Assembly: GCF_000021865.1 (NCBI RefSeq)
Contig: NC_014034.1
Coordinates: 1,320,001-1,352,000, forward strand
Direction: 5' to 3'
DNA length: 32,000 nt
Source: Rhodobacter capsulatus SB 1003
GTDB lineage: Bacteria; Pseudomonadota; Alphaproteobacteria; Rhodobacterales; Rhodobacteraceae
Part shown: piece by piece, positions 13,615 to 32,000 of the stretch
How the letters are laid out: every line of letters starts with the position of its first letter
Position numbering within the stretch: position 1 is the first letter of the stretch
Program-made: the position numbers and the translations under genes
The notes under the pieces: generated by a model
What the model saw: only the letters and a program-made list of their open reading frames with translations
What the model was told of the DNA's origin: nothing
Database searches by the model: none

Positions 13615-14159
13615 ATCAATCTCTTCAAGGCAGCCTGCGCCGACAGGCCGGGAGCGAAATTGCTCCTGCTCCTACTTATACCAGCGCGCCCGTCGCGGCG
13701 TCGATATTCGCGGAAACGGCAACCCCGCCGAAGGCTGGACCTTGGCGGGGGAGATTCGGGGCGGAAGAGAAACGCGGAATCGTCGCGGACCAAGGGACCG
13801 CTGCCGCGCCAGTTGGCGCTGGCCTGCAGAGATTTATCATAGGTCTGGATACTCGATGAGCAATCTGTGTCCTGCGCGCCCCATTCCTAACCCTTCAAGG
13901 CAACGGGTGTTTGCGTTATGGCAGGAGAAAACCCCCTGATAAGGGGTGGCCCGATATATATAATAAGGTTGCCGCTTACGAGGGGGTTTCTTTCCAAACA
14001 AAAGGACGACGAACGCCGTTGCCGTGAAAGGTGAGGCAAGGCGTGCTCTCCGAGCCGTCGCGGGAGCGACCCATGCCCCGCCATGGCCCAGTTCCGACGT
14101 CGCCTTACCTCTGGTGCTCCATCCTTTTCGCGTTATCCACGGACCCGGCTTCCCGCGCC

Positions 14160-15245
14160 TTACTCTTGGCGGAACCACAGGAAGCCGACCGGATCAATGT
14201 CAGCGAGACGCTGCACCGCCACCGGCTCCACGCAGTCCCGATGAGCGAGCGCGAGAGACCGGATACCCCGCTGCCGCAGATGCGCCCGGATCGCGCGCTG
14301 CACGGTGACGGGCGCGGGCTCGTTGGCCACGCCATAAATCCCGTCGCAGACCCAGAACGTCTCCGCGCCGTCGTGCAGGCGGACCAGTTCGACCACCACC
14401 GGGGCGGCGCGCCACTCGGCGTAAGCGGTCACCCCGAGCGCGGCATTGGTGATCTTGCCCGCACGCTCATCGTCGAGGCAGTTGCGATACCGCTGGCCGC
14501 AGGCGCGGAAATCGTCGCCGGTGCGCAAGAAGGACAGGTCGGCGTCATCCTCCAGATCGCAGAGCGCGTAGCCGTAGCGCAGCAGCATCCGCGTCACCCA
14601 GGCGCGCAGGTCATCCGCGCCCCGCTGCTCCAGCGATTGGGCGAGCACATGGTCGGGCAGGCCCAGACAGGCGCGCGTCAGGACCTCCGACGCCTGCTCG
14701 ACCTGACGGGCCATCGCGGCCCCGCCAATTGCCGCGACGACGCTGGGGCGCAGATAGGCGTCGCGCAGCAGATCGAGGCTGCGCAGGTAATCCGACGTGA
14801 TCCGGCGCGATTGGCGCAGGCATGTCGCCTGCCGCCGCGCCCGCCGGGTCGTGCCGGTCAAGATGGAGACGATGCGGCCATAATCAGCGGGGGCATCAAG
14901 TGGGCTGCTGCCGGTCTTGGCGACCGTGGCGGCCAGCGCCGGGATTGCGCCGTGGCAGGTTTCCACGATCTCGCGCGGGGTCGCCGTGAGCAGCCACTCG
15001 ACAAGCACCTCGGGCGCGAGGCTTCGGATGGTGGCCGGGGTTTCGGCCTGATCTCGGTCTTGCAGTTTGGCCAGCGCCGCGAAAACAGCGGAGCGGCGCT
15101 CCGCGCTCGCAACAGCCAGAGGGCCGATCAAGCGGCGATCTGCCGTGTTTTCGATGTCCATGAGCATGGGCAGCGCCCAGCCGCGCGGCACATCCGGGCT
15201 GCGGCCGAGGTCAGCGCGCCGGTTGGTGGGGGGATTTTTGGTCAT
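14160..15245 (-). CDS. Hypothetical protein (361 aa), no recognisable motifs
   Basis: Long ORF. Start trimmed to the ATG at 15245, which is preceded by AAGGGAGA. Lies between the primase gene and the divergent Type III mod gene. Confidence 0.65.
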   Translation of the reverse strand: MTKNPPTNRRADLGRSPDVPRGWALPMLMDIENTADRRLIGPLAVASAERRSAVFAALAKLQDRDQAETPATIRSLAPEVLVEWLLTATPREIVETCHGAIPALAATVAKTGSSPLDAPADYGRIVSILTGTTRRARRQATCLRQSRRITSDYLRSLDLLRDAYLRPSVVAAIGGAAMARQVEQASEVLTRACLGLPDHVLAQSLEQRGADDLRAWVTRMLLRYGYALCDLEDDADLSFLRTGDDFRACGQRYRNCLDDERAGKITNAALGVTAYAEWRAAPVVVELVRLHDGAETFWVCDGIYGVANEPAPVTVQRAIRAHLRQRGIRSLALAHRDCVEPVAVQRLADIDPVGFLWFRQE

Positions 15246-15548
15246 AGTCGTCTCCCTTGATGCGTAATCGCTCTGGGAGACGGCGGGAGACGAAAAGGGT
15301 GATCGGCGGGGGCATGGTGTCACCTGTGCTGGCGCGGTTTGATGCACAGATCGGGGGCCGATCCTCGGTGCCTCTTATACACCACCACCAAGAGCAGGAC
15401 AGCCGTGAATGAGGCGGGCCAAGGGAATTGCAGGGCGATAACGGCCGCCGATCTCGTTGCGCCAAGACTGTCGTCGGGACGATTTGCACCTTGCCGGTGG
15501 ACCGTATGGTCTGGTCTAAAGGGCGTAGCAGTTGGCGGGGGTATTGCG

Positions 15549-17342: not shown

Positions 17343-19951
17343 TGCGGACGCTTGACTATCAGGAACGGGTTCTGCGCACGCTGGACGACTATCTGGACGA
17401 GTTGAAGGCGCAGAAGGTGCAGGCCGACCAGATCGACGCTGTGCGCGCGGCCAACCCGAACTTGGCCATCCCGCCCTTGGATTTCTGCGCAAAGGCTTGG
17501 GAGAACCTGAACGCGGTGAAGCCGCTGCCGGTGCGAAAGTTCAAGGACGGCACGGTTGTTCCCTTCTCGCCGCGTGTCGACGGTATCGGACGGGCGGTGC
17601 CCAATGTCACCTTCAAGGTGCCCACAGGCGGCGGCAAGACATGGCTGGCCGTGAATGCCGTTTCCCGCATCATGGGGCGGTATCTGGGCAAGAACGAGGG
17701 CTTCGTGCTGTGGGTGGTGCCGAACGAGGCGATTTACACCCAGACGCTCAAGCGCCTGAAAGACCGGCAGCACCCCTATCGTCAGGCGCTGGACCGCGCG
17801 GCGGCGGGCCGGGTGAAGGTGATGGAGAAGGGTGACCGGCTGGACGCGCGGGATGTGGAAACGCATCTGTGCGTCATGGTGCTGATGTTGCAGGCGGCGA
17901 ACCGGCAGACGCAGGAAACCTTGCGGATGTTCCGCGACCGGGGCGATGTGCACGGGTTCTTCCCGCCCGAGGGGGATCAGGCGGCCCATGCGGCAGAGTT
18001 GAAAGCAGTGCCCAATCTGGACGGCTATCAGGGCATGTTCCCGATGGTGAAGGACAGTCTGGGCAACGCACTGCGGAAAATCCGCCCGGTGGTGGTGATG
18101 GATGAGGGGCAGAAGGCTACTTCAGACCTCGCCAACAAGACGCTTTACGACTTCAACCCGCTCTTTGTGCTGGAACTGACCGCCACGCCCAAGGATGTGA
18201 CCGCCAAGGGCGGCGGGGCGCGCTATGCCAACCTGTTGGTGGAGGTGACGGGGCGCGAGTTGCACGCCGAAGACATGATCAAGATGCCGCTGAACCTTGA
18301 ACCCCGGCAGGGCACGGATTGGCGGGGCACGCTGACGGCGGCGCTGGACCGGCTGAACACCTTGCAGGCGGCGGCAGACGCCTACCGGGCCGACAGGGGC
18401 GAGTTGGCCTATATCCGCCCCATCATGCTGGTGCAGGTGGAGCGGACGGGAAAGGATCAGCGCGACGGGGTGCATATCCACGCCGAAGACGTGAAGGAAT
18501 GGCTGCTGCAAGCGGGGCTGGACGAGGCGCAGATTGCCATTAAGACCGCCGAACAAAACGACCTGAGCCAGCCCGAGAACCAAGACCTGCTTTCGCCAGC
18601 GAACCGAGTGCGGGTGATCGTCACCAAGGCGGCGCTGCAAGAGGGCTGGGATTGCCCCTTTGCCTATGTGCTGTGTTCGCTGGCCGCAGCATCGAACCTG
18701 TCCGCCATGACGCAGCTTGTGGGCCGCATCCTGCGCCAGCCCTATGCGCTGAAAACCAAGGTGTCCGCGCTGGACGAATGCTATGTCATCACGCACCATG
18801 CCGGAACGCGCGAGGTCGTGGAGGCCATCAAGGCAGGGCTCGAAAAGGACGGCTTGGCCGATCTGGTCATCGAAGTGCCAGCGGGCACGGGGGCTACAGC
18901 ACCCGGAACGCAGCGCCGCGTTGAACGGCGGGCAGAGTTCAAAAGTCTGAAAGTCTATCTGCCCAAGGTCCTTTGCGACGATGGCGGAGCGTTGCGCGAC
19001 CTGGACTACGAAACCGACATCCTGTCGGCCATTGACTGGCGCGATTACGACCCAAGCGCAGTGGCACAGGCCATCCCAGAAAACCCGTTGCTGGCCGCAG
19101 CGCAGTTGCAGCGGATCAGCCTGACGGATGGGGGGTCCGATTACTTCCGTCAGGAGGAAATCGCCGCCGCATCAGAGACGCTGCGCTACGATCCATCCTA
19201 TGCTGTGCGCGTCATCTCCGACCTTGTTCCAAACCCGTTTGTGGCGCGGTCGATACTCGGTCGCTTGGTGGACGTGCTGAAGGCGCGCGGCTTTGACGAC
19301 AAGAAGCTTGGGGCCGCGTCGGGCGTCATCGTGGATGCCCTGCGGCTTGCGCTCGATAAGGAACGCACGACACGGGCAGAGGCGCTGTTCAAGGCAGGGG
19401 TCAAAGCGGGCCGTATTCAGTTCCGGCTACGACTGGATGGCAACAACTGGGTGATGCCCGAGACAATAACGACCTTTGAGCCGGACCTTTCCCCGCACAT
19501 GACAGGGGGCGATGGCGGGCCTCTGAAACGCAGCCTGTTCTCGCCAGTGTTCCGCAACGAACTGAACACCGAGGAACAAGGGGTTGCCGTCCATCTCGAC
19601 GGGGAGGCCGCTGTGAAATGGTGGCATCGCAACGTCGCCAAGACCAACTATGGCATCCAAGGTTGGCAGCGCGGGCGCATCTATCCCGACTTCATCTTTG
19701 CAACGGGTTGCGCGGGCGGTAATGGGCGCATCGTGATGTTGGAAACCAAGGGCGACCATCTTCAGAACCCGGACACCGACTACAAGCGCGAGGTTCTGGA
19801 CTTTTTGACGGAGAACTTCTCGTGGGATCAAGCCGTGCCCGCCGGTCAACTACAGATTACCCAAACAGGCGAAACTCTGGAGTGCGCGCTGGTATTGATG
19901 AGGGACATCCCGGCGCGGCTCCCCGTTCTGATTGCTGGCCACGAACCGTGA
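17342..19951 (+). CDS. res: Type III restriction endonuclease Res subunit (SF2 helicase plus PD-ExK nuclease)
   Basis: Helicase motifs VPTGGGKT (I), VVMDEGQ (II), LTATP (III), QEGWDCP (V) and QLVGRILRQ (VI). C-terminal nuclease-like IYPDF...VMLETKG. Confidence 0.9.
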   Translation: MRTLDYQERVLRTLDDYLDELKAQKVQADQIDAVRAANPNLAIPPLDFCAKAWENLNAVKPLPVRKFKDGTVVPFSPRVDGIGRAVPNVTFKVPTGGGKTWLAVNAVSRIMGRYLGKNEGFVLWVVPNEAIYTQTLKRLKDRQHPYRQALDRAAAGRVKVMEKGDRLDARDVETHLCVMVLMLQAANRQTQETLRMFRDRGDVHGFFPPEGDQAAHAAELKAVPNLDGYQGMFPMVKDSLGNALRKIRPVVVMDEGQKATSDLANKTLYDFNPLFVLELTATPKDVTAKGGGARYANLLVEVTGRELHAEDMIKMPLNLEPRQGTDWRGTLTAALDRLNTLQAAADAYRADRGELAYIRPIMLVQVERTGKDQRDGVHIHAEDVKEWLLQAGLDEAQIAIKTAEQNDLSQPENQDLLSPANRVRVIVTKAALQEGWDCPFAYVLCSLAAASNLSAMTQLVGRILRQPYALKTKVSALDECYVITHHAGTREVVEAIKAGLEKDGLADLVIEVPAGTGATAPGTQRRVERRAEFKSLKVYLPKVLCDDGGALRDLDYETDILSAIDWRDYDPSAVAQAIPENPLLAAAQLQRISLTDGGSDYFRQEEIAAASETLRYDPSYAVRVISDLVPNPFVARSILGRLVDVLKARGFDDKKLGAASGVIVDALRLALDKERTTRAEALFKAGVKAGRIQFRLRLDGNNWVMPETITTFEPDLSPHMTGGDGGPLKRSLFSPVFRNELNTEEQGVAVHLDGEAAVKWWHRNVAKTNYGIQGWQRGRIYPDFIFATGCAGGNGRIVMLETKGDHLQNPDTDYKREVLDFLTENFSWDQAVPAGQLQITQTGETLECALVLMRDIPARLPVLIAGHEP

Positions 19952-20003
19952 TGTTGTAGGCCAGAACTGACACCCGAAGGGATGCAGATGCGCAACTTTC
20001 GCC

Positions 20004-20639
20004 TCACATCCCCCACCGTGCTAGAGCGGCCTCGGCCTGCGCCGGGTTCTCTCTTATCCGCAGGATGGCTTGCCGCGAAATTCCGGTCGCCTTGCTGATC
20101 TCGGACGCTCCCGCGCCGTTGTCGAGCATGTCTCGCACGACGATCAGCTTGCTGCGATCGAAGGTCGGCTTCTTGCCACGGTAGCGGTTGCCATTAGCCT
20201 TCGCCGCCTCGATACCAGCGCGCTGCGCCTCTCGCAGCGCCTCTGCTTGGGCTTGGGCCGTGGCAGCCATAAACGCGATCATCGAGTCCCGCACCGCCTG
20301 CTGCACCGGATCAGAGGTAGAGCCGTCGAAGGTCATGTTGTTGATGACCGTCCGGACGATGACCCCCTGCTGCATGAAATGCCGCACGACTTCGGTGACA
20401 TCGGTGTAGTTGCGGCCAAGCCGGTCGAGCCAGCGCACGACCAGCACGTCGCCCTTCCGAAGGAGATCGAACAATCGACGCCCCTCGGCTCGCTCGCGCA
20501 ATCGAGTGCTGACGCCGGACACACCGTGGTCGGCAACCACTTCGTCGATCACGAAGCCTGCCATCTCGGCTTGGGTGCGCTGGTGAGAGAGCGTCTGATC
20601 CGCAGTGGACACGCGGGCGTAAAGAACGGTGCGGCTCAT
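20004..20639 (-). CDS. Serine recombinase (resolvase/invertase family)
   Basis: MSRTVLYARVSTADQ catalytic-Ser motif, VVRWLDRLGRN, and a C-terminal HTH (ISKATGISRQAILRI). Start at 20639 is preceded by GGAGGAA. The track ORF to 20957 is an upstream extension. Confidence 0.9.
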   Translation of the reverse strand: MSRTVLYARVSTADQTLSHQRTQAEMAGFVIDEVVADHGVSGVSTRLRERAEGRRLFDLLRKGDVLVVRWLDRLGRNYTDVTEVVRHFMQQGVIVRTVINNMTFDGSTSDPVQQAVRDSMIAFMAATAQAQAEALREAQRAGIEAAKANGNRYRGKKPTFDRSKLIVVRDMLDNGAGASEISKATGISRQAILRIRENPAQAEAALARWGM

Positions 20640-20649
20640 GTTCCTCCGG

Positions 20650-20690
20650 ATGTCCGTTAAGGTGATGTCCGTTAATTCGCATGTCCGTTG
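20650..20690. repeat. Three direct ATGTCCGTT(A/G) repeats immediately upstream of the recombinase start
   Basis: ATGTCCGTTA at 20650, ATGTCCGTTA at 20665, ATGTCCGTTG at 20681 (15-16 nt spacing). Confidence 0.6.
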
Positions 20691-21004
20691 ATGCGTGTCA
20701 ACCTCTATGGATACCCCAGTTGGGCGGCTTCGGGGTGACCGTTGGGGTATGGTTGAGCGGACGACCGAATGCGAGGAGGATTGTAGGACGCGCTGTGTGC
20801 GAGAAGCAACGAATGTTCCATATTTGAAGACGCGTCGCTTTGTGGCTATGGACAGTTCATGAACGATGAAGCAAACAACTCCAGCGTGCGGGGAGACTCT
20901 GCAGTCGGTCCATGCGGGCTTTACTTGTGAAGGATAGGCGCTCAGCCTAGCTGGCATGCCTATAGGTTAGCTGATCCGTTTCGGAAAGGCCAACCTACTC
21001 TCGT

Positions 21005-21655
21005 ATGAGGGGTAGATTATCTGATTTCTATGCCCCGCACGCACAGAGCTATTGGAGATTAAAGGTGACGAACGTTTCCGGCATAAACTCGCCGACCCCG
21101 GATAAATCCCTTGCAGATAAGATTTGGTTAACCTCTCATTGCAGAATGAACGCGGAGAGGAGGAATCGACGCTACGAAATTTGGGCTACAATCGAGTTGT
21201 CGTCGGTTTCAGTTGGAATAATTGGCCTGACCACATTCCGCGATCGACTGGGTGCCTTCCCTGTGGACGAATATACTTTGATACTTTCAATTATGACTCT
21301 TGTAATATCTACGCTGATTGCCGGAGCGAAATTTGGCGAGCGAGCGGCTACGTTCAGGGAATGCTACCTTCAACTTGAAAGGCTGAATGCCAGCAAGCAA
21401 GACCTGCAAGAAAAAACCTCAGAGTATAATGCGATACTGGCATCATACCCGAACCACTCGGACATTGATTACACATCTCTAATCATATCGAGAACTCTGT
21501 GGCGAAATCAGGAACTATGCGACCCACGAGGCAGATCAATCACATGGACGTGGGGAACTCTTGGTTCTTGGATATTGTATATTTTCGTGGAGGTGCTGGT
21601 ATATTTGGTTCTTCCTGCCTTGGTTTTTCTGCCTGCCGCCGTTCTCGCTTGGTGA
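21005..21655 (+). CDS. SLATT-like 2TM membrane protein (putative effector partner of the RT)
   Basis: Two adjacent hydrophobic helices (IWATIELSSVSVGIIGLTTF and LILSIMTLVISTLIAGAKF) are followed by a helical segment (RECYLQLERLNASKQDL...YNAILASYP) and a C-terminal TM. This layout resembles SLATT domains. The start is uncertain: ATG 21005, or GTG 21065 preceded by GGAG. Its stop abuts the RT start. Confidence 0.5.
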   Translation: MRGRLSDFYAPHAQSYWRLKVTNVSGINSPTPDKSLADKIWLTSHCRMNAERRNRRYEIWATIELSSVSVGIIGLTTFRDRLGAFPVDEYTLILSIMTLVISTLIAGAKFGERAATFRECYLQLERLNASKQDLQEKTSEYNAILASYPNHSDIDYTSLIISRTLWRNQELCDPRGRSITWTWGTLGSWILYIFVEVLVYLVLPALVFLPAAVLAW

Positions 21656-23008
21656 GTGCTGCAGATGGGGTCAAAGGAAACTTTTTGCGCGCTGTTTAAC
21701 CCAAAGGAACTTCAAGACATATTTGATAAGTCTGTTGCGCTGAAGGGGGCCATCGGGCGCGATGGCCAATCAGTGGAAGCATTCAGAGGGCGCATAAAGG
21801 ACGAGCTTTCCCTCATCGAACGGAAGGCGCTGAATTGCACATACAAATTCACCGCCTACAGTGAAAAATTGGTTTCCAAAGGTGCAGGGAAAAGGCCGAG
21901 ACAGTTGTCTAAGCCGACCGTTCGAGACAAGGTAACACTCAAGGCGCTATCGAAGATACTGGTCTCATTATTCCCTTCTGCCATTCCCGCAACCCCCCAC
22001 TCAATAGTGAGGGATGCTTTGGGCATTATAAGGGGTGAATTCGGTGAATTTTATTACGTTCGACTTGATATTCAAGAGTTCTTCCCGTCAATCGACCACG
22101 ACATACTAATGCGGCTACTTAGGAGGCGCATTAGGTATCGCCCTATTCTTCATTTGGTTAAGGATGCAATTAGAACGCCAACAGGCGTGAAGAAAAGTGA
22201 GGGCTCGCTTAACCAAGTTGGCATCCCGCAAGGCTTGAGTATATCAAGCGCTTTGGCGTCAATATATTTGGCTGATATGGATGAGGAATTGAGTTCCCTA
22301 TGCAGCGGTCGCTACTTTCGTTATGTTGATGATGTGCTGTTCGTGTGCAAGCCCTCGGAAGCTGAAGAAATAGCCAGACGCGCGACCGAAATATTACAAA
22401 AAAAACGCAAGATCAGTTGTCATCCTGTCGGGACTGGCGGCAAGAGCGTAATTGTTCCAGGTGCTCAAGGCATCGATTACATAGGCTATCACTTCTCGCC
22501 CGGTCTCCTGCGTGTTCGAACCTCGTCAGTGCGTAAGTATTTGGGCGTAATGGTGACGGAGTTCTCGAAGTGCAAACAGGCAGGACTTGCGGGGAGCAGG
22601 TTGTGGCGACTGAATCTTCGGATCACTGGCTGTATTTTTGATGGAAAACGAATTGGCTGGATGTTTTTCTTTTCTCAGACGGAGGACGTGTCACAGTTGA
22701 AGCGGATTGATGCGTTCATCAAGTCGCGTGCTGGTTTGGTTTCGGGTCAAGCGGAGGCTTCTAGGGTCAAAAGACTTGTTCGAGCTTATCATGAAATTAA
22801 ATACAATCTGCACGGGACTAAATACATCCCCAATTTTGACAAATATGGGCTTGAGGATAAGAGGCGAGATATTTGTCTGCTGGCCCCCCACTTATTTTCT
22901 GCTCGTGTTGAAAGCATGACGGCAGACGAAATAAACGCTGCATTCCGAACTTGCATTAACAAGGAAATCTCGGATATCGAGAAAGACCTGCTTGAGGCAT
23001 TTTCGTAA
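21656..23008 (+). CDS. Reverse transcriptase (standalone, non-retron-looking; UG/Abi-like or group-II-like lineage)
   Basis: RT motifs in order: YVRLDIQEFFPSIDH (motif A), GIPQGLSISSALASIYL (motif B), YFRYVDDVLFV (YxDD) and IDYIGYHF. About 150 aa of C-terminal extension. Start is GTG 21656 or ATG 21665. Confidence 0.85.
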   Translation: MLQMGSKETFCALFNPKELQDIFDKSVALKGAIGRDGQSVEAFRGRIKDELSLIERKALNCTYKFTAYSEKLVSKGAGKRPRQLSKPTVRDKVTLKALSKILVSLFPSAIPATPHSIVRDALGIIRGEFGEFYYVRLDIQEFFPSIDHDILMRLLRRRIRYRPILHLVKDAIRTPTGVKKSEGSLNQVGIPQGLSISSALASIYLADMDEELSSLCSGRYFRYVDDVLFVCKPSEAEEIARRATEILQKKRKISCHPVGTGGKSVIVPGAQGIDYIGYHFSPGLLRVRTSSVRKYLGVMVTEFSKCKQAGLAGSRLWRLNLRITGCIFDGKRIGWMFFFSQTEDVSQLKRIDAFIKSRAGLVSGQAEASRVKRLVRAYHEIKYNLHGTKYIPNFDKYGLEDKRRDICLLAPHLFSARVESMTADEINAAFRTCINKEISDIEKDLLEAFS

Positions 23009-23242
23009 TGTTCGCCAGAATGACGTAGGGCGTTGCCCGACGTCCATTTCGCGTCTGCCGCACATATTCGGTGTATGGAACCTGGCCATAGCAATTTTCT
23101 AATCGGACTTAGCCTAAATTCTGAATGCTACCGGCTTTTCCATCGGGCGGGGATGTCATCTCGTTCAGGAGCGCCCCGCCCATCTGGCCCGCCGAAGCGC
23201 TTCCGGTTGGGCGCTCAGGGGCATCGTGTGCGTATGACATCT

Positions 23243-23254
23243 TGCGTGACATTT
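23243..23254 (+). promoter_or_regulatory. Right-end copy of the TGCGTGACATTT arm-type motif
   Basis: Exact 12-mer shared with 7528-7539. A related TGCGTATGACAT sits at 23229-23240. About 60 nt inside attR. Confidence 0.45.
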
Positions 23255-23313
23255 TGGAGGGCGGGCGAACGATAACCTTTTGAAATATAAAGGAATCGTT
23301 GGAGCGGCGACGT

Positions 23314-23330
23314 CCACCGCTTCCGCCACC
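23314..23330 (+). repeat. attR core: CCACCGCTTCCGCCACC
   Basis: Exact direct repeat of 7433-7449. No tRNA body precedes it. Confidence 0.8.
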
Positions 23331-23469
23331 TCACATTGCCGCGCAAGAAAATAAATCACTATAATTCATATGCTTAGACAATAATTCAATCTCGCGGAAA
23401 TCTAAGTCCCCTTGATATCGCTCCGCAAAACGCCACACAATATGCTCCACATTGATCTGTGAGGGCATC

Positions 23470-24735
23470 ATGACGATCATGCGGCGGGGCAAGGGGTTGA
23501 GTCTGCGCAGGCGGGTGCCGCAGCGCTATCGGCCGGTCGAGCCGCGCACCGAGATCTGGCTCAGCCTGCATACGGATTCCGAAACCATCGCCAGCCAGAA
23601 GGCGCCCCGGATCTGGCACGAGCAGATCGAGGCCTGGGAAGCGAAGCTCGCGGGCGACAGCGCGGAGGCCGAGGCGCGCCATGCCGCCGCGCGGCGCCTC
23701 GCAGAGGTGCGGGGCTATCGCTATCTGACCGCGGACAAGGTGGCGAGCCTGCCGCGCAGCGCGCTTCTCGAGCGGGTCGAGGAGGTGGCCCGGCGCGGTG
23801 CCGATCCCTCCGAGGCGTCCGCCCTTCTCGGCGGCGAGGCCGAGCCGCCGATCACCGTCAGCCGGGCGCTCGAGCTTTATTGGGGTTTCGCACGCGATCT
23901 GGTGCTGAACAAATCCCCCGATCAGCTCCGCCGCTGGCGCAACCCGCGCATCAAGGCGGTGAAGACCTTCATTGATGTGATCGGCGACAAGCCCCTCGCC
24001 CAGATCACCCGCGACGACATGCTCGCCTTCCGCGAGTTCTGGCTCAACCGGATCGAAGAAGAGGGCGTCAAGCCCAATAGCGCGAACAAGGACCTCACCC
24101 ATCTTGGCGGCGTTCTGCGCATGGTCGTCGAAAAGAAGAAGCTGGCCATCGTGCTGCCTTTGGGCGGGCTTGCCCTGAAAGAGGGAGACAAGGCGCAGCG
24201 CCTGCCGTTTTCGGACGGCTGGATTCGCGATCGCCTCTTGGCCCCGGGGGCGCTCGACGGGATGAACGACCAGGAGCGCTGCATCTTGCAGGTGGTGATC
24301 AACACCGGAATGCGGCCCAGCGAGGTTGCGGCGTTGCGGTCCACAGAAATCGCGCTGGATGTCGCCGTGCCGCATCTGTCGCTGCAGCCGATCGGGCGGG
24401 AATTGAAATCGGCGTCAGCGCGGCGGGTGATTCCGCTCTTGGGCATTGCCCTTGCCGCGATGCGTGCCTTCCCCTAGGGGTTTCCGCGCTATCGGGAAAA
24501 CTCTGCCAGCCTGAGCGCCGCGATGAACAAGTACCTGCGCGGCAACGGGCTGATGGAGACGCCTCGGCATACGATCTATTCGCTGCGCCACGCTTTCGAG
24601 GACCGGATGCTTGCCGCGCGCATCGACGAGCGGATCCGGCGCGATCTGATGGGCCATTCGCTCGGCCGCGAGCGCTACGGCTTAGGTGCCTCGCTCGAGC
24701 ATGCCGCCGAATTGCTGGTGCCGATCTCGTTCTGA
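23470..24735 (+). pseudogene. Tyrosine integrase paralogue interrupted by one in-frame TAG (24475-24477)
   Basis: ORFs 23452..24477 and 24523..24735 are in the same frame. ...AMRAFP*GFPRYRENSASLSAAMNKYLRGNGLMET aligns with the integrase-1 segment ...AMQRFPNGFPRYDDKAATLSATVNKYLREAGLMET. The catalytic LRHAFE / MGHS / RYG lie downstream of the stop. Confidence 0.8.
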
Positions 24736-25001
24736 TCGATCAGCGCATTGCTCTCGTTTTGCGCGATTACCGCGCGGGCGCGGGCGATCACATCCGCGGC
24801 CTGCGCCTGTTTCTCAAGTGCGATCTCTCGCTCGAGACGGCGGAAGATCGGCGCATAAACCGGGTTTTCGATGACGAGACCGGCAACGATGCGCAGTGCG
24901 GCCTCCAGCCGTTGCAGATCGCCCTGCCCGGGACGCAAGGCCGGGCGCGCGGGCGGCACGCTGCCCCCCGCCTTTCGCCCCGTCTGTTGCCCGCCGTCCA
25001 T
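24675..25001 (-). CDS. Hypothetical small protein, positional and weak sequence counterpart of 8853..9062
   Basis: Internal ATG at 25001 of the 301-aa track ORF. Convergent with and overlapping the integrase pseudogene 3' end. May itself be decayed. Confidence 0.3.
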   Translation of the reverse strand: MDGGQQTGRKAGGSVPPARPALRPGQGDLQRLEAALRIVAGLVIENPVYAPIFRRLEREIALEKQAQAADVIARARAVIAQNESNALIDQNEIGTSNSAACSSEAPKP

Positions 25002-25278
25002 GCCGCTTTGCGCTCCCGTCTGCCCAAGATCGCGCCCGACGAAAAATCTGGGCCAATGATCTGGATCCGCCGTCTCAGGCGGTGACACGAGTATAGGGCG
25101 GATGCGGTTTGGCCCCGAGCGTGCTTTCGGCGGTCGAGGGCGCGCAACGGCAGAAAGATGTTGATAACCCCCTGTTCTGGAAGAGATTTGCGAAAAAGAA
25201 TTGGACATCCCGTGGCCCGGTGGAGCTGCCCTCCCCTTGACCCGGACGGTGCGGCCCGAAAATCCGGAACTTTTTTGC

Positions 25279-25440
25279 GAGAGGGGGCTGAAGAGGGAAA
25301 AGACCGAAAGAGAGGTCAAGGGGAAAAGAAGAAAGAGCGCCCTTGGCGCGGCGCAGATCGGGAGAGATGGAAAAAGAAGAAAAGAGAAAAGACGGCGCAA
25401 GAGCGCCGGGGGAAAAGGTGGGAAGAAGAGAGAAGAGACC
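25279..25440 (+). other. About 160-nt polypurine (A/G) tract on the plus strand with two embedded 5-bp GC hairpins
   Basis: Runs such as GAAGAGGGAAAAGACCGAAAGAGAGG and GGAAAAAGAAGAAAAGAGAAAAGA. Hairpins are GCGCC-CTT-GGCGC (25337-25349) and GGCGC-AAGA-GCGCC (25394-25407). Confidence 0.7.
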
Positions 25441-25539
25441 CGGCAAAGGCGGCGCCTGTTTCGGGGCCGGTTCGACCCTCGGCCTCCCGGACAGTCGGCG
25501 ATCCGCGCACCGGGGGACACCGCCGGTACGACAACAGGT

Positions 25540-25941
25540 TCAAACCCAGGAAATGGCGTCTCGCAACCTGTCTGGCCCAAGGATCAGATCGCGCGGAATG
25601 CCGTAGCGCAGCGCATAAAACGAAACTTCGCCTGGGTCCGCAGGGACACCCAGCCGATACCACCGCGTCATCGTGCGCGCCCACGTCAGATCGGGATCGA
25701 GACCGCACAAACGGGAAGTGTGGCTCACCGGACCTCGGCACACGGGGTGCCCCTCCGGCCGCCCCATCAAGATTGCGCCACCAAAACGGGTGTCCTGCAC
25801 GCCGATCCACGCGTGCATGGTGGGCGCCGAAATCAGATCGGTCGCGCTCGGCCCCGCTTCCGCCAGAGCAGTTGCGACACGCTGCGCCTCGCGCAGCGCG
25901 TGGTTGCCAAGGTCATTGGCATGAAAAGGCTTAGCGCACAT
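25540..25941 (-). CDS. Hypothetical protein (133 aa)
   Basis: ORF with GGAGAT just upstream of the ATG. Composition is protein-like, but I recognise no motif. Confidence 0.45.
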   Translation of the reverse strand: MCAKPFHANDLGNHALREAQRVATALAEAGPSATDLISAPTMHAWIGVQDTRFGGAILMGRPEGHPVCRGPVSHTSRLCGLDPDLTWARTMTRWYRLGVPADPGEVSFYALRYGIPRDLILGPDRLRDAISWV

Positions 25942-26637
25942 GATCTCCGACGGTCATTCGTGACCCTCGCTTGTGCGAACGATGCCGTTCGGAACAGCCC
26001 CCGTGGTAAGGGAGACTCCAGACTGCCACGGGGCGGGGTAGTGCCAGCCACACGTCCTTCAGGAAACCGACGGACGCTAAACCATCGGAACCGGCAGCGG
26101 GGGCTTGCCACCTTCAGGTCCAGACGTTGTAGGCACCCTCGCTATGGGGCGGGGGTGCTTTCACCTGGTGGAAATTGAAGAGGGAGGCGCCTAGCGCCTC
26201 CCTCCCTACTCAACTTAGTGGGCCGGCCCAAAAGAACAGCCGGATTAGCCACCAAATCAGTCTCAGAACCGCCCAAACTAGGTGGTTCTCTTGCTTGCGA
26301 TGCATTTCCCTTCTCCCCAGCCGATGGAAGTCGGTTTGGAAAGAAACGGTGAGGCGGCTGTAGCCTCACAGGAAGATTGGCAGCTCCGCAGTGCTAGCAG
26401 CTATGGTCCGTTACTGGGCGGAGATTTCTTCTTCAGAAAGCAGCCTTACAACTTCGATATTGGAACGGCGAAAGCCGAATTCAAGATGGAAGCGGATTAG
26501 TGGACCAATCTCACCTAGGGCCAGCGTTAACTGCGAGTGACTGACTGATTCACCTAGCATCCGCACTGCTTATCACTTGCTTATGGAATCGGTTCAAGCG
26601 CTTTGCAGCGCGTAAAGAATCATCTCTAATAAGTTGT

Positions 26638-26949
26638 TTATATGCGGGAAATTTGTCTGAGCGAGAGGATTCGAACCTCCGACCCCCTGCGCACGAAGAA
26701 GCGGGCCGGCCGCACCAGACCCGCGCCGCGCAGCATCAGTCCGTGCTCGAAACTGGTCGCGCCGTTGATGTGCAACTCGACCAAGCCGCGCCAGATCGGA
26801 TTGTCGAGATACCGCGAGACCCGTTTGCGCGCGAGCGCGCTGAAGCCCGGTTCCCGCGCGACACGCGCGTCAAACGCCCGCCGCGCAGCGATCTCGGCTT
26901 CGACGAGAAAGGTGACCGGTTCAAGGTCGAGGTCGTCTGTGTCCTGCAT
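26638..26949 (-). CDS. Hypothetical ORF, probably a truncated N-terminal gene fragment whose 3' end reads into a tRNA-like fragment
   Basis: 103-aa ORF divergent from the XRE gene. Its last ~20 codons (..GSEVRILSLRQ..) are a translation of a tRNA T-arm. Confidence 0.3.
   Translation of the reverse strand: MQDTDDLDLEPVTFLVEAEIAARRAFDARVAREPGFSALARKRVSRYLDNPIWRGLVELHINGATSFEHGLMLRGAGLVRPARFFVRRGSEVRILSLRQISRI
26657..26690 (-). other. tRNA 3'-end-like fragment (T-arm plus acceptor strand only)
   Basis: The minus strand reads GGGGGTC-GGAGG-TTCGAAT-CCTCT-CGCTCAG-A. I could not fold a D-arm or anticodon arm from the upstream sequence. It sits at a sharp AT-rich to GC-rich composition break. Confidence 0.55.
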
Positions 26950-26961
26950 TTCCGCCCTCCA

Positions 26962-26980
26962 TTATCTAAATTTTAGATAA
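26962..26980. promoter_or_regulatory. Perfect palindrome TTATCTAAA-T-TTTAGATAA in the divergent promoter region (candidate XRE operator)
   Basis: 9-bp arms with a 1-nt centre, 48 nt upstream of the XRE start codon, in an AT-rich patch. Confidence 0.55.
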
Positions 26981-27027
26981 TCTACTTTCCGCATTACCGC
27001 CAGCCCCAAAATGCAGGGCGGAGCGAG

Positions 27028-27285
27028 ATGCCGAGAACGATCCACACCGAAGGCCAGCGGGCGCTTTGCGAGGCGATCGCCGCCGCCCGCCGGGAGAAAG
27101 GGCTCAACCAGGCCGATCTCGCCCGCGAACTTCATTGCCAGCAATCGCTGATCGCGCGCATCGAATCCGGCGAACGGCGGATTGATGTGCTGGAGTTCAT
27201 CAAGATTTTCCGCGCGCTTGGTGTGTCTCCGGCGGAGGCGCTTCGGCGTGTGGGCGAGCAGATTCCTGCGGATCAAGGCATCTGA
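27028..27285 (+). CDS. XRE-family helix-turn-helix transcriptional regulator
   Basis: 85 aa. REKGLNQADLARELHCQQSLIARIESGERRIDVLEFIKIFRALGVSPAE matches the Cro/C1-type HTH pattern. Confidence 0.85.
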   Translation: MPRTIHTEGQRALCEAIAAARREKGLNQADLARELHCQQSLIARIESGERRIDVLEFIKIFRALGVSPAEALRRVGEQIPADQGI

Positions 27286-27481
27286 AGTCGGCGCTTCCGG
27301 CATTGCAGAACGCCGTTTGCGGCGACGCAGGGCTTTGACGCTGCCCAGATCCATCGGGTCTTGCGCCCGACGGGGGGACGGAGGTCATCCACGACGGCGG
27401 CTGCAACCGGGGCGCATTGCGCTGCGGCGGCTTTCCTGTAACCTGCGGCAAATTCTTGTGTTGCCGTCAGGTGTTCCGCGC

Positions 27482-29284
27482 ATGACCATTGATCTCGGCC
27501 CCATCCAGACCAGAGCCGCTCAGGAGATTGCCGTCGGCGGGCTGCGCGTCTGGTATCATCTGCCCTTTGCCCTCCTTGATGACGGCATCGATCCGGCCCG
27601 GCACGGCTGGGTTGCGGAAAAGCCCAAAGGCACGCTGCAACAGCAGTTCTACTTTCATCCTTTCGTGTCGAATGCGCTTTGGGACCGGGCCGATGGCGGC
27701 GTCTCGGCGTTGTTCGACCTCTATCGCAAACCGGCGTTCGAGTTCCGGCATTTCACCGCCGACTTCGACTCGACCGACTGGAAAGAGATGCAAGATGGCA
27801 AATCGGAGCAACTGCTGTGCCGTCGCACCTTTCGCGGCACGGTGCGCACGGTTGAACTGCGGCGCCTGCGCGAACCGGCCGGGTCCGGGCGGCAGAGCGG
27901 TTTGCACGGCTTTGCCATGCTGGTCGTCAGCGTCGATTTCCTTTGTGCTGCCTATGGCGAATATCCGCGCGACAAGGTAAAGGACCCGGCCCCCTTCGCC
28001 CCGCTGACGCTGGCCGATGCGCAAGATGCGTTGGATCTGTCACGGCGCATCTTTCCGCGCTGGCATTTCTACGGCGAGGATGCACTGCCGGGGGATGCGC
28101 TGACGAGGGTGCCCTGTTTCGGGCCTGCCCCGTCGCGTCCCGAAATGGACGAAGGGGTGCGCAAGGGAAAGACGCAGCTGATGCCCTGGGTGCGCGAACT
28201 TGTTGCCCCCTTCACCCTCTCGGAACCGGATTCGCGCCATTTCGGCGACGAACGCGCCTTCATCACCTCGGCTGTGCTCTTGGGCGATGGCAGCGAACAG
28301 GAGGCCGAGGCCTTCACCCTGATGACCCGGGTCAAGGACAGCGACCTGATGCGCTTGGCCGAGGTGGACCGGCGTGGCACGGGCTACAGCTACAACAAGC
28401 CCTTCCTCGACGCACTCGCACCGGGGTATTTCTACACCCGACAGGCCCCCGATGGCCCCACCGGCACCGGCAATTCCACGCTTTACATCACCGCCTCGCA
28501 CCATTTCTGCGCCCTAGGCGCGGGCGGGTACATGCGCAACGTGATCCTGGGCAACGGCATCCCGGGCCATCACGACATGGGCCATGCCGAGGAATATTAC
28601 CGCCACATGCAGTTTCTGTGCGTGTTCGAATTCTTCCGCCTGCTGCAATTCTCCCAGACCCTGTCGGAACTGGTGCGCAGCCAGCGCGAGCGCGGGGCGA
28701 TCGGCGACAAATCCCGAACGGCGGTGGCGGATTTCGGTCAGCGGCTGATGCGGATCCGCGACGAATTCCTTGACTTCACCCACCTGCACCACTTCTCCAA
28801 CATCTCCTCGCAACTGCAACCGCGCGAGATGTTCGACCGCCTCTATGCCGCCTTCGGCATTCCCGCGATGTTTGCCGAGGTCGAAAAGGAACTCGAGGCG
28901 GCGACGAGTTTCCACGAGATGCACACCAATGCCGAGGCGCGCGAGGATGCGGCGCGGCTCAACAAGCTGGTGTCGGTCGGCGTGCCGTTGTCGCTGTTGG
29001 TCGGCGCGGGGGGGATGAACATCTTCATCGGTGACAAGGCCCCGTTCGGGTTGCACGCGATCGTTCCGGCCCTCCCGGGGCAGACCGATGCGGCGGGGCC
29101 GCCCGATGGCTGGCTGCAACTGCTGCAACTCTCGGTGCTGGTGGCGATCATCGCCGGGATCTGGGCTTTGGCCGAGCGGGTCTATTTCCGCGACAAGCGG
29201 TCCTTCTGGGGCTGGCTGGCCTATGGTGCGGCGGCGGCGGCCTTTGCGGGCAGCGAGGCGCTGCATCTGTGGCCCGCGCCTTGA
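27482..29284 (+). CDS. CorA-family membrane protein with a large N-terminal domain (candidate CRISPR-associated effector)
   Basis: The C-terminus matches CorA architecture: LNKLVSVGVPLSLLVGAGGMNIF (TM1 ending in the GMN signature), a short loop, then TM2 LQLSVLVAIIAGIWALAERVYFRDKR. About 480 aa of soluble N-terminal region. Start placed at the ATG at 27482 (MTIDLGPIQ), because the track's TTG at 27182 overlaps the XRE gene. Confidence 0.7.
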   Translation: MTIDLGPIQTRAAQEIAVGGLRVWYHLPFALLDDGIDPARHGWVAEKPKGTLQQQFYFHPFVSNALWDRADGGVSALFDLYRKPAFEFRHFTADFDSTDWKEMQDGKSEQLLCRRTFRGTVRTVELRRLREPAGSGRQSGLHGFAMLVVSVDFLCAAYGEYPRDKVKDPAPFAPLTLADAQDALDLSRRIFPRWHFYGEDALPGDALTRVPCFGPAPSRPEMDEGVRKGKTQLMPWVRELVAPFTLSEPDSRHFGDERAFITSAVLLGDGSEQEAEAFTLMTRVKDSDLMRLAEVDRRGTGYSYNKPFLDALAPGYFYTRQAPDGPTGTGNSTLYITASHHFCALGAGGYMRNVILGNGIPGHHDMGHAEEYYRHMQFLCVFEFFRLLQFSQTLSELVRSQRERGAIGDKSRTAVADFGQRLMRIRDEFLDFTHLHHFSNISSQLQPREMFDRLYAAFGIPAMFAEVEKELEAATSFHEMHTNAEAREDAARLNKLVSVGVPLSLLVGAGGMNIFIGDKAPFGLHAIVPALPGQTDAAGPPDGWLQLLQLSVLVAIIAGIWALAERVYFRDKRSFWGWLAYGAAAAAFAGSEALHLWPAP

Positions 29285-29551
29285 GGGGCTGCGGCACCCT
29301 GTCTTGCATCCCGGAAACTTCGCGGTGGACAGGGGAAATTTCGCCTGCCAATCTGACCTTGACGGCGGGAAAGCCGGGCCAAAAGGCCGATTCACTGTTG
29401 GAAAACCTGCCATGACCTTGAAAATCAAGGATAAAGGAGGAAAAACACGCGCAAAAACCGGGCTTGCAAGGGCTGTTTCGGGGCGTCGGGCACATCACGG
29501 TTGGAAAGCGGACCAAAAAGCGCTTTCGGGTCTTGGGTTTGCAGAGGGTGA

Positions 29552-29802
29552 GCCCAGATACCTCTCCCGCCAGTAAGCGGATTGAGACGTCGATCCGGTC
29601 TCAAGCTGCGCCTGCGTCACGGCCCAGATACCTCTCCCGCCAGTAAGCGGATTGAGACACGGGGGCGGCGGCGAGGCAGGCGAAGGCGGCGGCGCCCAGA
29701 CACCTCTCCCGCCAATAAGCGGATTGAGACTGCGTCACCTCCGATCAGCGCGAGGATGCGATCAGGCCCAGACACCTCTCCCGCCAGCAAGCGGAGTGCG
29801 TG
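29552..29802 (+). CRISPR. CRISPR array: four 37-nt repeats and three spacers (33, 35, 35 nt), last repeat degenerate
   Basis: R1 = R2 = GCCCAGATACCTCTCCCGCCAGTAAGCGGATTGAGAC (29552, 29622). R3 (29694) has 2 mismatches. R4 (29766) loses the 3' ATTGAGAC. The repeat contains a CCGC-loop-GCGG hairpin followed by the 8-nt tag ATTGAGAC. An A-rich leader lies at about 29290-29551. Confidence 0.9.
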
Positions 29803-29931
29803 GGGTGTCGGTGTATGGGCCCGCCTGCGTGCGGATGTGGCGTGGTGACGCATCCTTGACGGCTGAAACATCAGGGCTTGCCGGGAATCATTCCTGCCCC
29901 TCTCATGTCCCCATTCATGCAGGGGGGCAGG

Positions 29932-31398
29932 ATGTTCCTTTATCTCGAGGGCGTGAATCTTTACGCCACGATTTACGATACCGAAGACCTTTCCACGATC
30001 CGCGGCGGCTCGATGGCGCTGGAAACTCTGGCGCAGCGGGCGCAGGCGGCGCTTGGCGGCACGCTGCGCGGGCAAGGCGCCTCGATAGCGCTGTTGGAGT
30101 TTTCCGGCCCGCCCCCCGAGGAGGACAAGATCCGCGCCTTTCTGAGCGCCACGCCGCAATGCCATTTCACCCTCACCTGGGGCACGGGCGAGACCGAGGC
30201 GCAGGCGATCAAGGCGGCGCGAGACCGGCAGTTTTCGCAGCTTGCCACGGTGGTGCTGCCTGCGATCATGGCGGGGGTGCGCCCCTGTGCGATCGATCAC
30301 ACGCGGCCCGGCACGATCAGCGATTTCGACCTCAAGGAGCAGAAGGAACGTTTCCTTTGTGCCTCGGTCGCGGACCGGCGCAAGATCGGTCGGGTCGGTC
30401 GGCCGCAATTGTTTCGCAAACGCCAGCCGCAACCGCCGCAAAGTTTCGAGGACATCGCGCCCGAGGACGCCCCCGGCCTCAAGCCAAATGTGCGGGGCAA
30501 GATTGCGGTGATCGTCGCCGATGGCATGGGGGGCGGCGATCTTGCAAAGGCCTATGGCACCGACACCGCAGGGTTCAGCACTGCGATGGCGGCGTTTCGG
30601 GCGCGTCTGGCCGAGGCGATCGAAGATTGGGCTAGCGCCGAGGGGCTGATTTACACCGACAAGGCGGGCGTGGCCCATGCAAGGGTCGATGTGCTGATGT
30701 GGGGCGGCGATGACATGACCTTTGTCGTGCCCGCTTCGCATGTGCTGGGGTTTCTGGCGGCGCTGCAGGGGGTGCTGGGCGCGCCCTTCGACAAGGACAA
30801 GGGGACGGCGCGGTTCGGGCACCGCATCGGCTGCGTGATCGCGCAGCGCAAGACGCCGATCCGGCTTTTGAAGAAACTGGCCGGCAGCGCCGAGGCGGCG
30901 TTGCGCGATGCGGTGACGCCCGAGATGCGCAAGGCGGGGGTGTCGGTGGTCTCGCTTGACGTGTTCGAAAGCGCGCCTTTGCCCTTTGCCTCGATCCTCG
31001 ATCATCGCCGCACCGTGTATGGGCAGGGCTATCGCTCGGGCGCGGATGCGGTCTTGCTGTCGCATGTCGCCAAGATGGCGGCGGCGCTGCGGGAGCTGGA
31101 CGACGAGGAAGGGGCGATCCTGAAGATGTCGCAGATTTATCGGCTGCTCGATGTCGCGCGGCTGTCACGGCGGGACCTGTGCAGCAAGGCGGCAGATGAG
31201 GCGATTGCCGAGGCGATGAAGGGGCATTTCGAGCGGGTGAAGGGCACGCCACCCGATATGGCCGCGTGGGAAAATGGCTGGACCGGGCAGGCCTCGCGCG
31301 GGTTGGCGCTGCTTCTGGCGCAGGTGGCGCAACTGCAACCCTATGCGCAACCCTTTACCGACGAACGCGCCCGCGTTCTTTCGGAGGCCGTGCAATGA
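29932..31398 (+). CDS. cas10: Compact Cas10/Cmr2-like protein without an HD domain (GGDD palm motif retained)
   Basis: N-terminal LEGVNLYATIYDTEDLSTIRGGSMAL resembles the Cas10 GIQ.FI....L..lRGrS segment. KIAVIVADGMGGG resembles the (l)l.aDGD.MG motif. VDVLMWGGDDMTFVVPA resembles the Cmr2 GGDD motif. The helical C-terminal third is D4-like. Only about 488 aa. Start could also be 29878, 29905 or 29917. Confidence 0.65.
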   Translation: MFLYLEGVNLYATIYDTEDLSTIRGGSMALETLAQRAQAALGGTLRGQGASIALLEFSGPPPEEDKIRAFLSATPQCHFTLTWGTGETEAQAIKAARDRQFSQLATVVLPAIMAGVRPCAIDHTRPGTISDFDLKEQKERFLCASVADRRKIGRVGRPQLFRKRQPQPPQSFEDIAPEDAPGLKPNVRGKIAVIVADGMGGGDLAKAYGTDTAGFSTAMAAFRARLAEAIEDWASAEGLIYTDKAGVAHARVDVLMWGGDDMTFVVPASHVLGFLAALQGVLGAPFDKDKGTARFGHRIGCVIAQRKTPIRLLKKLAGSAEAALRDAVTPEMRKAGVSVVSLDVFESAPLPFASILDHRRTVYGQGYRSGADAVLLSHVAKMAAALRELDDEEGAILKMSQIYRLLDVARLSRRDLCSKAADEAIAEAMKGHFERVKGTPPDMAAWENGWTGQASRGLALLLAQVAQLQPYAQPFTDERARVLSEAVQ

Positions 31399-32000
31399 CC
31401 GCGCCACTTGTGTTTGATGTCACGCTGTCGCTCAAGGCACCGTTCCTGTTTCCCGGCCAGGATCCCGGTCGGTTCGGCTATGACCGGGTCGCGCTGCGCG
31501 ATCTGGACGGTCGGCCGATCATTCCGCAAGACCAGATCAAGGGGCTGATCCGGCATGGTCTGACGATCATGGGCGAGACCGAGCTGGTCGAGGGGCTGAT
31601 GGGCAAGGGCTCGGCCGATGCGCGCAAGGACAGCGGCGGGGCGTTCGAGCCCGCCAAGGGGCGGATGTTCCTGACCGATCTGCGCTGCACGATCGAGCCC
31701 GATCTGCGCTCGACCGACTACCACCGGGTGCAGATCGACGACGAGAGCGGGGCGGCGAAACAGGGGCATCTGTTGCGGATCGAGCAGGTCTTTGCGCCCG
31801 AACGGGAGGTTGCCTTCAGCGGGCGGATCACCCTCTTTCCGACGGCGAAAGCGCCCGATGCGCAGGCGCTTGCTCTGCTGCTCGCGGCGGCACTGCAGTG
31901 CAAGCGCCATATCGGCGCCATGGCCTCGATCGGTTTTGGCGAGGTCAGCGGCTGCTCGGTGGAGCCGGCCCTGGAAGCCGAAGAGGCCTGCAAGTTGCCG
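31395..32000 (+). CDS. RAMP-superfamily (Cas7/Cmr-like) protein, 3' end beyond the window
   Basis: My own translation is open to the window end. It begins MTAPLVFDVTLSLKAPFLFPG...LRDLDGRPIIPQDQIKGLIRHGL (the classic G.P.IP...iKG.lR RAMP motif) and contains a glycine-rich loop HIGAMASIGFGEVSG about 185 aa in. ATGA overlap with the cas10-like gene. Confidence 0.7.
   Translation, partial: MTAPLVFDVTLSLKAPFLFPGQDPGRFGYDRVALRDLDGRPIIPQDQIKGLIRHGLTIMGETELVEGLMGKGSADARKDSGGAFEPAKGRMFLTDLRCTIEPDLRSTDYHRVQIDDESGAAKQGHLLRIEQVFAPEREVAFSGRITLFPTAKAPDAQALALLLAAALQCKRHIGAMASIGFGEVSGCSVEPALEAEEACKLP

Follow-up and report, generated by a model that had tools for sequence, protein, structure and literature searches.

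A 32,000-nucleotide stretch of the Rhodobacter capsulatus SB 1003 genome (contig NC_014034.1, positions 1,320,001 to 1,352,000; the whole of it is referred to here as the window) carries a corA-like gene at positions 27482-29284 of its forward strand. Judging from sequence comparison, the encoded protein is a further member of the known family of CRISPR-associated CorA effectors, in its type III-D2 form. We consider it likely that this protein is a membrane effector of type III-D2 CRISPR gated by a messenger of the S-adenosylmethionine-AMP (SAM-AMP) family. The assignment is carried by a family match over the full length of the protein, by the conservation of two motifs known from the CorA effector of Bacteroides fragilis, by the III-D2 gene neighbourhood, by the SAM-contacting residues kept in the neighbouring Cas10, and by the CorA-like fold of the C-terminal region in a structural model.

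The gene is an ATG-initiated open reading frame (ORF) with a product of 600 amino acids (aa). Its G+C content at third codon positions is 0.78, as expected for a coding sequence in a window whose overall G+C content is 0.63. Near its C-terminus the product contains LLVGAGGMNIFIGD, in which GMN occupies residues 511-513, and its C-terminal stretch reads GVPLSLLVGAGGMNIFIGD. A preliminary description of this DNA had reported the reading frame, the GAGGMNIF segment and C-terminal hydrophobic helices, all of which are borne out by translation and hydropathy analysis, and had correctly tied the CorA-like membrane protein to a Cas10 (type III CRISPR) locus. An identical protein is annotated in several R. 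capsulatus genomes at NCBI. Together with the 22 close homologues described below and a match to the PADLOC profile PDLC01043, this establishes the protein as real and conserved.

Scans of the protein against Pfam and NCBIfam gave zero matches, as did searches of PDB sequences with either the protein or its family profile as query. The preliminary description recognised nothing in the N-terminal part, and for such general libraries this is accurate. The CRISPR-specific profiles of PADLOC gave a different result. PDLC01043, a 'CorA-like' profile, aligns residues 12-577 with profile positions 2-457 of 457 (E 1e-128), and a second CorA-like profile, PDLC01174, matches residues 219-562 (E 2.7e-31). 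Because PDLC01043 spans residues 12-577, the N-terminal part belongs to a defined family. A word-indexed search returned 22 close homologues of 550-640 aa that align end to end, with the exception of one truncated product of 517 aa (P0002); rerunning the search with alignment returned the same 22 proteins, and the wider family was seen only in an exhaustive search of representatives. In that profile search, which covered 1.84 billion representative proteins, 1,902 related clusters were found, 1,007 of them at E <= 1e-10 and 259 at E <= 1e-30. The best 150 of the 1,902 are mostly 500-740 aa long and align across much or all of the N-terminal domain and the C-terminus. All ten clusters sampled across these 150 are matched by the two PADLOC CorA profiles along most or all of their length, and none has a convincing Pfam CorA match. 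Looking up the names of the clusters gave no informative annotation.

The best-characterised relative is the CorA of B. fragilis. Chi et al. (Nature 2023) reported that the type III-B Cmr complex of this organism makes SAM-AMP, and that its CorA binds SAM-AMP and not cyclic triadenylate (cA3) (PMC10600005). Immunity was lost in the R152A/R153A and D219A/D220A mutants of B. fragilis CorA, and was abolished when the transmembrane (TM) domain was removed (PMC10600005). The two mutated pairs are labelled the RR and DD motifs in Supplementary Fig. 10 of that study (PMC10600005). From the text of this figure, obtained by optical character recognition (OCR), we rebuilt two sequences of the CorA-1 clade. 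Each aligns with all of PDLC01043, positions 1-457 of 457 (E 2e-98), and both also match PDLC01174. A bridging MAFFT alignment was then built from 23 sequences: the window protein, 20 progressively more distant relatives, and the two CorA-1 sequences. In this alignment R188-R189 of the window protein (28043-28048, forward strand) fall in the column of the RR motif (R152/R153), which is kept in all 23 sequences, with RK in one of the OCR-derived CorA-1 rows. D256-E257-R258 (28247-28255, forward strand) align with the DD motif (D219/D220, 'DDR'), and the D[DE]R column is likewise kept in 23 of 23, reading E-E-R in the relative P0021. The YFH, Y.R, F-S and Q.Q..E motifs are conserved in the same alignment. 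A comparison by hhalign of the family alignment with a single, noisy OCR-derived CorA-1 sequence recovered only the stalk and first TM helix (positions 344-489, probability 92%); for this reason it is the shared profiles and the bridging alignment that support the homology of the N-terminal domain to CorA-1. By these comparisons the N-terminal domain is the usual signal-sensing domain of the CRISPR-CorA family, not a new one. The view that it is uncharacterised or new is therefore not sustained, since PDLC01043 matches the full length of the protein, the CorA-1 sequences match the same profile, and RR and DD are kept; the accompanying proposal, that a Cas10-made signal is probably sensed by the long cytoplasmic part, is upheld.

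The genes that follow corA are those of a type III-D2 system. Downstream on the same strand, a CRISPR array begins after 268 nt and cas10 after 648 nt. The cas10 gene (29932-31398, forward strand; PADLOC Cas10, E 1.7e-18) encodes a small type III-D2 Cas10 of 488 aa counted from its ATG, with a GGDD cyclase motif; its ORF opens upstream of this ATG, at a TTG at 29878. Translation of 31395-32000 (forward strand) gives the first 202 codons of cas7-5, a Cas7-Cas5 fusion gene that is cut by the end of the window. In a full copy of the locus (L005) the cas7-5 product is 548 aa long and matches Pfam RAMPs and chain C of PDB entry 9WXH (E 3.9e-26). Beyond it lie an 875-aa protein with three RAMP stretches (Cas7x3), Cas2, Cas1 (fused to a reverse transcriptase, RT, in one genome) and Cas6. 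The order of the locus is thus corA, array, cas10, cas7-5, cas7x3, cas2, (RT-)cas1, cas6. This is the type III-D2 architecture published in Nat Commun 2026 (PMC13294483), and the loci around the homologues P0016, P0010 and P0015 are built in the same way.

The neighbouring Cas10 points to the kind of signal that the CorA-like protein would receive. The only PDB sequence match of the window Cas10 is 9WXH chain B, a III-D2 Cas10 (E 2e-9), and the only PDB sequence relative of Cas7-5 is likewise a 9WXH chain. The III-D2 complex makes SAM-AMP and SAM-AMP2, and growth arrest that depends on the signal requires CorA (PMC13294483). We located the equivalent residues in a HMMER alignment, taking into account the 20-residue tag offset of the PDB chain. 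The SAM-contacting residues E8, N11 and L12 of 9WXH Cas10 correspond to E6, N9 and L10 of the window Cas10, within an identical EGVNL; the SAM-contacting Q186 corresponds to Q103, D286 to D197, and the GGDE motif (D347/E348) to GGDD. In 9WXH Cas10 the E8A/Q186A double mutation abolishes SAM-AMP synthesis (PMC13294483). Because the SAM-contacting residues are kept and the III-D2 complex makes SAM-AMP as well as SAM-AMP2, the input to the window CorA is most likely a SAM-AMP-type messenger, by analogy with that system. W351 of Cas7-5, which has been linked to SAM-AMP2 synthesis, sits in an unaligned gap of the 9WXH comparison, so SAM-AMP2 would be only a possible product at the R. capsulatus locus.

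These observations suggest the following sequence of events. A CRISPR RNA from the adjacent array would direct the Cas10/Cas7-5/Cas7x3 complex to foreign RNA, and the palm domains of activated Cas10 would join ATP and S-adenosylmethionine into SAM-AMP and possibly SAM-AMP2. The cytoplasmic N-terminal domain of CorA, about 366 aa long, would bind the signal, with R188/R189 and D256/E257 probably forming part of the site, and the conserved stalk helices would relay the change to a presumably pentameric CorA-type pore. Opening of the pore, or some other compromise of the membrane, would then stop the growth of the infected cell (abortive infection). It is work on relatives that suggests the SAM-AMP ligand, the pentameric assembly, the opening of a channel and the growth arrest. 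Placed in this way, the R. capsulatus protein joins the SAM-AMP branch of type III CRISPR defence, and residues for mutation are identified. It does not represent a new kind of system, and the questions it raises, on the sensor fold, the ligand site, gating and the missing degrading enzymes, are ones that the field already recognises and that are not peculiar to the window. R. capsulatus is a genetically tractable native host with an intact locus and natural split-cas10 variants, which makes it convenient for work at native expression levels.

A full-length monomer model was calculated with AlphaFold2 from the 22-sequence alignment (predicted local distance difference test score, pLDDT, 85.8; predicted TM-score, pTM, 0.78), with high confidence across residues 10-500 and reduced confidence at the periplasmic loop and second TM helix (pLDDT 50-59, residues 500-550). 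The N-terminal soluble domain, the presumed ligand sensor, comprises residues 1-366 (27482-28579, forward strand). It consists of a long antiparallel beta-sheet (residues 17-162), whose strands are 14-22 residues long, and after it an alpha/beta half (residues 173-356); a separate AlphaFold2 model of residues 1-366 gave a pLDDT of 85.4 and a pTM of 0.86. Compared with PDB structures, this domain has no significant match (best E 0.047, probability 0.18), and a Foldseek search of the viral library BFVD likewise returned nothing significant. We found no structure of a CRISPR-associated CorA in the PDB or in the literature searched. A modelled domain without a solved relative is consistent with the description by Chi et al. 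(2023) of the CorA effector as having a "unique fold". The suggestion that the ligand-binding fold may be new therefore holds with respect to solved structures; as a discovery it does not, because the statement had already been published.

Downstream of the sensor domain, the model contains helices at residues 368-406, 412-436, 445-458 and 460-519, the last of which continues into the first TM helix (TM1). Model helices, invariant alignment columns and the hhalign match define residues 367-494 (28580-28963, forward strand) as a helical stalk, whose most conserved motifs are YYRHMQF and FTHLHHFSNxSxQLQPRE. In a Foldseek search of the PDB with the full-length model, the top 16 matches, and the only coherent ones, are canonical CorA chains from T. 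maritima and M. jannaschii, with about 360 aligned columns. In the model, the C-terminal ~230 aa resemble CorA. This exceeds the extent first proposed, when only the last ~110 aa were thought to resemble CorA: the stalk helices start near residue 368 of the model, and the globular domain that remains unplaced is correspondingly ~366 aa rather than ~480 aa.

Kyte-Doolittle scans show two clear hydrophobic segments, at residues ~495-517 and ~543-568. The first, TM1 (28964-29032, forward strand), ends in GAGGMNIF, with GMN encoded at 29012-29020. The second, TM2 (29108-29185, forward strand), coincides with a model helix (543-568), reaches a hydropathy maximum of 2.2-2.4 and is followed by the basic patch RVYFRDKR. 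Beyond this patch (RVYFRDKRSF) lies a third hydrophobic segment, a C-terminal model helix at residues 575-593 (29204-29260, forward strand) that is weakly hydrophobic and a possible TM segment. The third segment is present in 21 full-length proteins among the 22 close homologues, P0002 being left out of this count as it ends after TM1. In the window protein its many Ala and Gly residues make it weak; most relatives have a strong one, with Kyte-Doolittle maxima of 1.4-2.9 in the other 20. The helix is absent from the CorA-1 clade, whose members stop just past TM2.

Conservation within TM1 is uneven. Across the 22 homologues G500, P502 and L505 are invariant and G511 is nearly so, while the M and N of the GMN motif vary. 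Among the closest relatives the GMN position reads GSN, GAN, GVN, GFA, GFD or ALW instead, and the GVPxSL of TM1 and the stalk motifs are invariant. From this pattern, GMN in the close relatives is not under CorA-like constraint. The Pfam CorA family (PF01544) does not match the window protein even at E 1 and matches only 2 of the 22 close relatives (best E 1.1e-5), and the YGMNF and MPEL context is absent from the protein. Selective Mg2+ transport is therefore unlikely as far as sequence can tell, and the doubt over classical Mg2+ transport voiced in the preliminary description is supported by the variable GMN and by the rarity of Pfam CorA matches. The protein may act as a pore of lower selectivity, or it may damage the membrane in a different manner.

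Several results weigh against a CorA-type channel gated by SAM-AMP. The Foldseek matches to canonical CorA are weak (E 3e-3, TM-scores of 0.19-0.29). Since GMN is not conserved in the clade, its sequences do not assure a CorA-style ion pore. The possible third TM helix would be a departure from CorA topology: if it spans the membrane, the C-terminus would be extracellular, unlike that of canonical CorA. The published III-D2 CorA is only ~12-15% identical to the SAM-AMP-binding III-B CorA (PMC13294483), so that ligand specificity could differ. The familiar partners were also not found. No NrN, DEDD nuclease or SAM-AMP lyase is recognisable beside corA when the flanking ORFs are scanned with Pfam and PADLOC, and Pfam and PADLOC reveal no recognisable VapBC-like, PIN or VapB toxin-antitoxin module nearby, whereas in both characterised systems a degrading partner or a toxin-antitoxin module is needed for defence (PMC10600005, PMC13294483). 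Makarova et al. (2025) reported that III-D loci are generally without SAM-AMP-cleaving enzymes (PMC12669027), and for this reason we regard a degrading neighbour as a frequent companion of these effectors, not a strict criterion.

The alphaproteobacterial III-D2 CorA clade might be a functionally distinct variant of the effector, given its length of ~600 aa, the three hydrophobic helices at its C-terminus, its degenerate GMN and the lack of a recognisable degrading or toxin-antitoxin partner. Such a variant might sense SAM-AMP2 or another SAM conjugate by means of a sensor fold without relatives among solved structures, and it might also lack a dedicated off-switch or act other than as a classical CorA pore. 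We think this rather unlikely.

The main rival to gating by SAM-AMP is that the same CRISPR effector responds to a different Cas10 product, either SAM-AMP2 alone or a cyclic oligoadenylate (cA6, for example); action other than as a channel and a housekeeping transporter are less likely. A cA6-responsive CorA clade has been predicted by Hoikkala et al., who proposed cA6 for an Actinomyces CorA clade (PMC11229360), and the N-terminal domains of III-B and III-D2 CorA are highly divergent (PMC13294483). Makarova et al. (2025) leave the ligand of III-D CorA unresolved, as those loci hold no SAM-AMP-cleaving enzyme (PMC12669027), and by Pfam and PADLOC the R. capsulatus locus holds none either. On the other hand, the neighbouring Cas10 keeps the equivalents of E8 and Q186, which when mutated together stop the III-D2 enzyme from making SAM-AMP, the RR and DD motifs are common to the protein and a known SAM-AMP binder, and the CRISPR locus contains no Csm6-2 or CARF/SAVED effector. 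We judge a different ligand to be unlikely.

A defence role by means other than a gated ion channel seems slightly less probable again. In this case the protein would disrupt the membrane by oligomerisation or lipid perturbation, or would serve as a membrane-anchored signal sink or scaffold. Chi et al. left the mechanism of CorA undetermined, with alternatives to pore opening (PMC10600005), and the degenerate GMN, the extra hydrophobic C-terminal helix, and the poor conservation and low model confidence of TM2 and the periplasmic loop would all fit such an activity. They must be set against the observations that TM1 (GVPxSL...G) and the stalk are among the best-conserved parts of the protein, that the fold match is specific to CorA channels, and that truncation of the TM domain abolishes immunity in B. 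fragilis. Finally, although a GMN tripeptide and a two-helix C-terminus are present, a housekeeping Mg2+/Co2+ transporter with an enlarged regulatory domain that neighbours the CRISPR locus by chance is very improbable: there is no Pfam CorA match, GMN varies in close relatives, the N-terminal domain is unlike the CorA cytoplasmic domain, the position beside III-D2 cas genes is kept in at least four independent loci, and the gene lies within a strain-variable defence island.

Comparison with known systems places the SAM-AMP-gated effector that we favour closest to the III-D2 system of HyVt-522, the source of 9WXH; this likeness was judged on Cas10, Cas7-5 and gene order. Both systems have CorA beside a small Cas10, a Cas7-5 fusion, Cas7x3, Cas6 and adaptation genes, and the Cas10 SAM-contacting residues of the HyVt-522 system, in which CorA is needed for signal-dependent growth arrest, are shared with R. 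capsulatus. The two Cas10 proteins are distant, that of R. capsulatus being ~100 aa shorter. In HyVt-522 a VapBC-like module is needed for phage defence, whereas in R. capsulatus none is recognisable and only an Xre-type helix-turn-helix (HTH) gene is found.

The B. fragilis III-B CorA (CorA-1) and the window protein match the same family profile over their full length, and they share the N-terminal YFH, RR, D[DE]R and Y.R motifs, the stalk motifs and a C-terminal CorA-like TM pair, despite low pairwise similarity. CorA-1 proteins, at about 490-535 aa, are shorter and end directly past TM2; in the window protein the beta-hairpins and the periplasmic loop are longer, and the third C-terminal helix is added. 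CorA-1 goes together with Cmr (III-B) complexes and has NrN, DEDD or a SAM-AMP lyase as a partner, and such partners are not recognisable at the window locus. With canonical CorA (T. maritima 2IUB, 3JCF and 8TME; M. jannaschii 4EV6; PF01544) the window protein shares a long stalk helix that runs into TM1, a G-M-N that ends TM1, and a second TM helix followed by a basic patch. In contrast, it is ~250 aa longer, its N-terminal domain has no detectable similarity to the cytoplasmic alpha/beta domain of canonical CorA, and its genomic setting is one of defence rather than ion homeostasis.

The CRISPR array next to corA (29552-29802, forward strand), found by repeat search, has four 37-nt repeats, the last of them degenerate, and three spacers of 33-35 nt. 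A leader (29323-29551, forward strand) lies between corA and the array and recurs at two other arrays: window positions 29323-29733 recur with 83% identity at L005 18590-18998, and positions 29489-29795 with 79% identity at L005 21104-21412, in both cases covering leader and first repeats. The full locus L005 holds three arrays with related leaders, after corA, between cas2 and cas1, and between cas1 and cas6. Window positions 17482-32000 are 100% identical to CM132222.1 and 99.99% identical to AYQC01000013.1 (R. capsulatus strain R121). Other R. capsulatus genomes differ in detail. In CP198954.1, cas10 is split into ORFs of 234 and 270 aa (L004 12452-13919). The adaptation gene encodes an RT-Cas1 fusion of 533 aa in one genome (L005 19045-20646) and Cas1 alone, of 356 aa, in three (L004, L006 and L007, 19047-20117). 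The L005 Cas7-5 (13914-15560) matches the PADLOC profile PDLC01419 ('Csm3') over 548 of 548 positions with 1,307 bits. Given this score, the profile was evidently made from this or a near-identical protein, and the locus is thus already represented in reference cas profiles.

Directly upstream of corA lies an Xre-type HTH gene of 85 aa (27028-27285, forward strand; Pfam HTH_3, E 1.8e-13), a possible regulator of the locus. In three related loci (L003, L008 and L011) no such gene is kept ahead of corA. Divergent from it is an ORF of 103 aa (26638-26949, reverse strand) with no domain match in Pfam or PADLOC scans. We considered these two genes as a conserved toxin-antitoxin-like partner of corA and rejected them, because the 103-aa ORF has no domain match and does not resemble the ORF found upstream in a related locus. 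Neither gene is kept next to corA in related loci. The pair (26638-27285) might act in regulation or be what is left of a toxin-antitoxin module. A promoter and terminator scan of 26900-30000 gave nothing that exceeded shuffled expectation.

Farther upstream, a DUF6538/tyrosine integrase gene (7486-8856) comes after a tRNA-Ser gene (7358-7447), and window positions 7450-23313 form a block that is wholly missing from a sister R. capsulatus genome (L007). In the block lie two paired genes of type III restriction-modification (15339-19951), a resolvase (20004-20957, reverse strand) and a DRT system made up of SLATT_5 and RT-UG17 (21005-23008). Between 10843 and 15347 it also contains long overlapping ORFs on both strands without Pfam match (923 aa on the reverse strand, 623 aa on the forward strand, and a pair of 409 and 395 aa). 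The block looks like a strain-variable defence island inserted next to the CRISPR island. An ORF of 341 aa at 23452-24477, with DUF6538 at its N-terminus and integrase matches that are only weak and partial, probably represents a second, degraded integrase at the edge of an older island that bears the CRISPR locus.

One homologue of the CorA-like protein lies in a different setting (region L001 4076-9151, also seen in L002). P0007, which is 41% identical, has no cas genes within 4 kb upstream or 10 kb downstream. Its neighbours are a reverse transcriptase of the Drt5 type and, in convergent orientation, an oligonucleotide cyclase of CBASS type without an obvious adjacent effector, a context that hints that the sensor-pore module may serve outside CRISPR as well.

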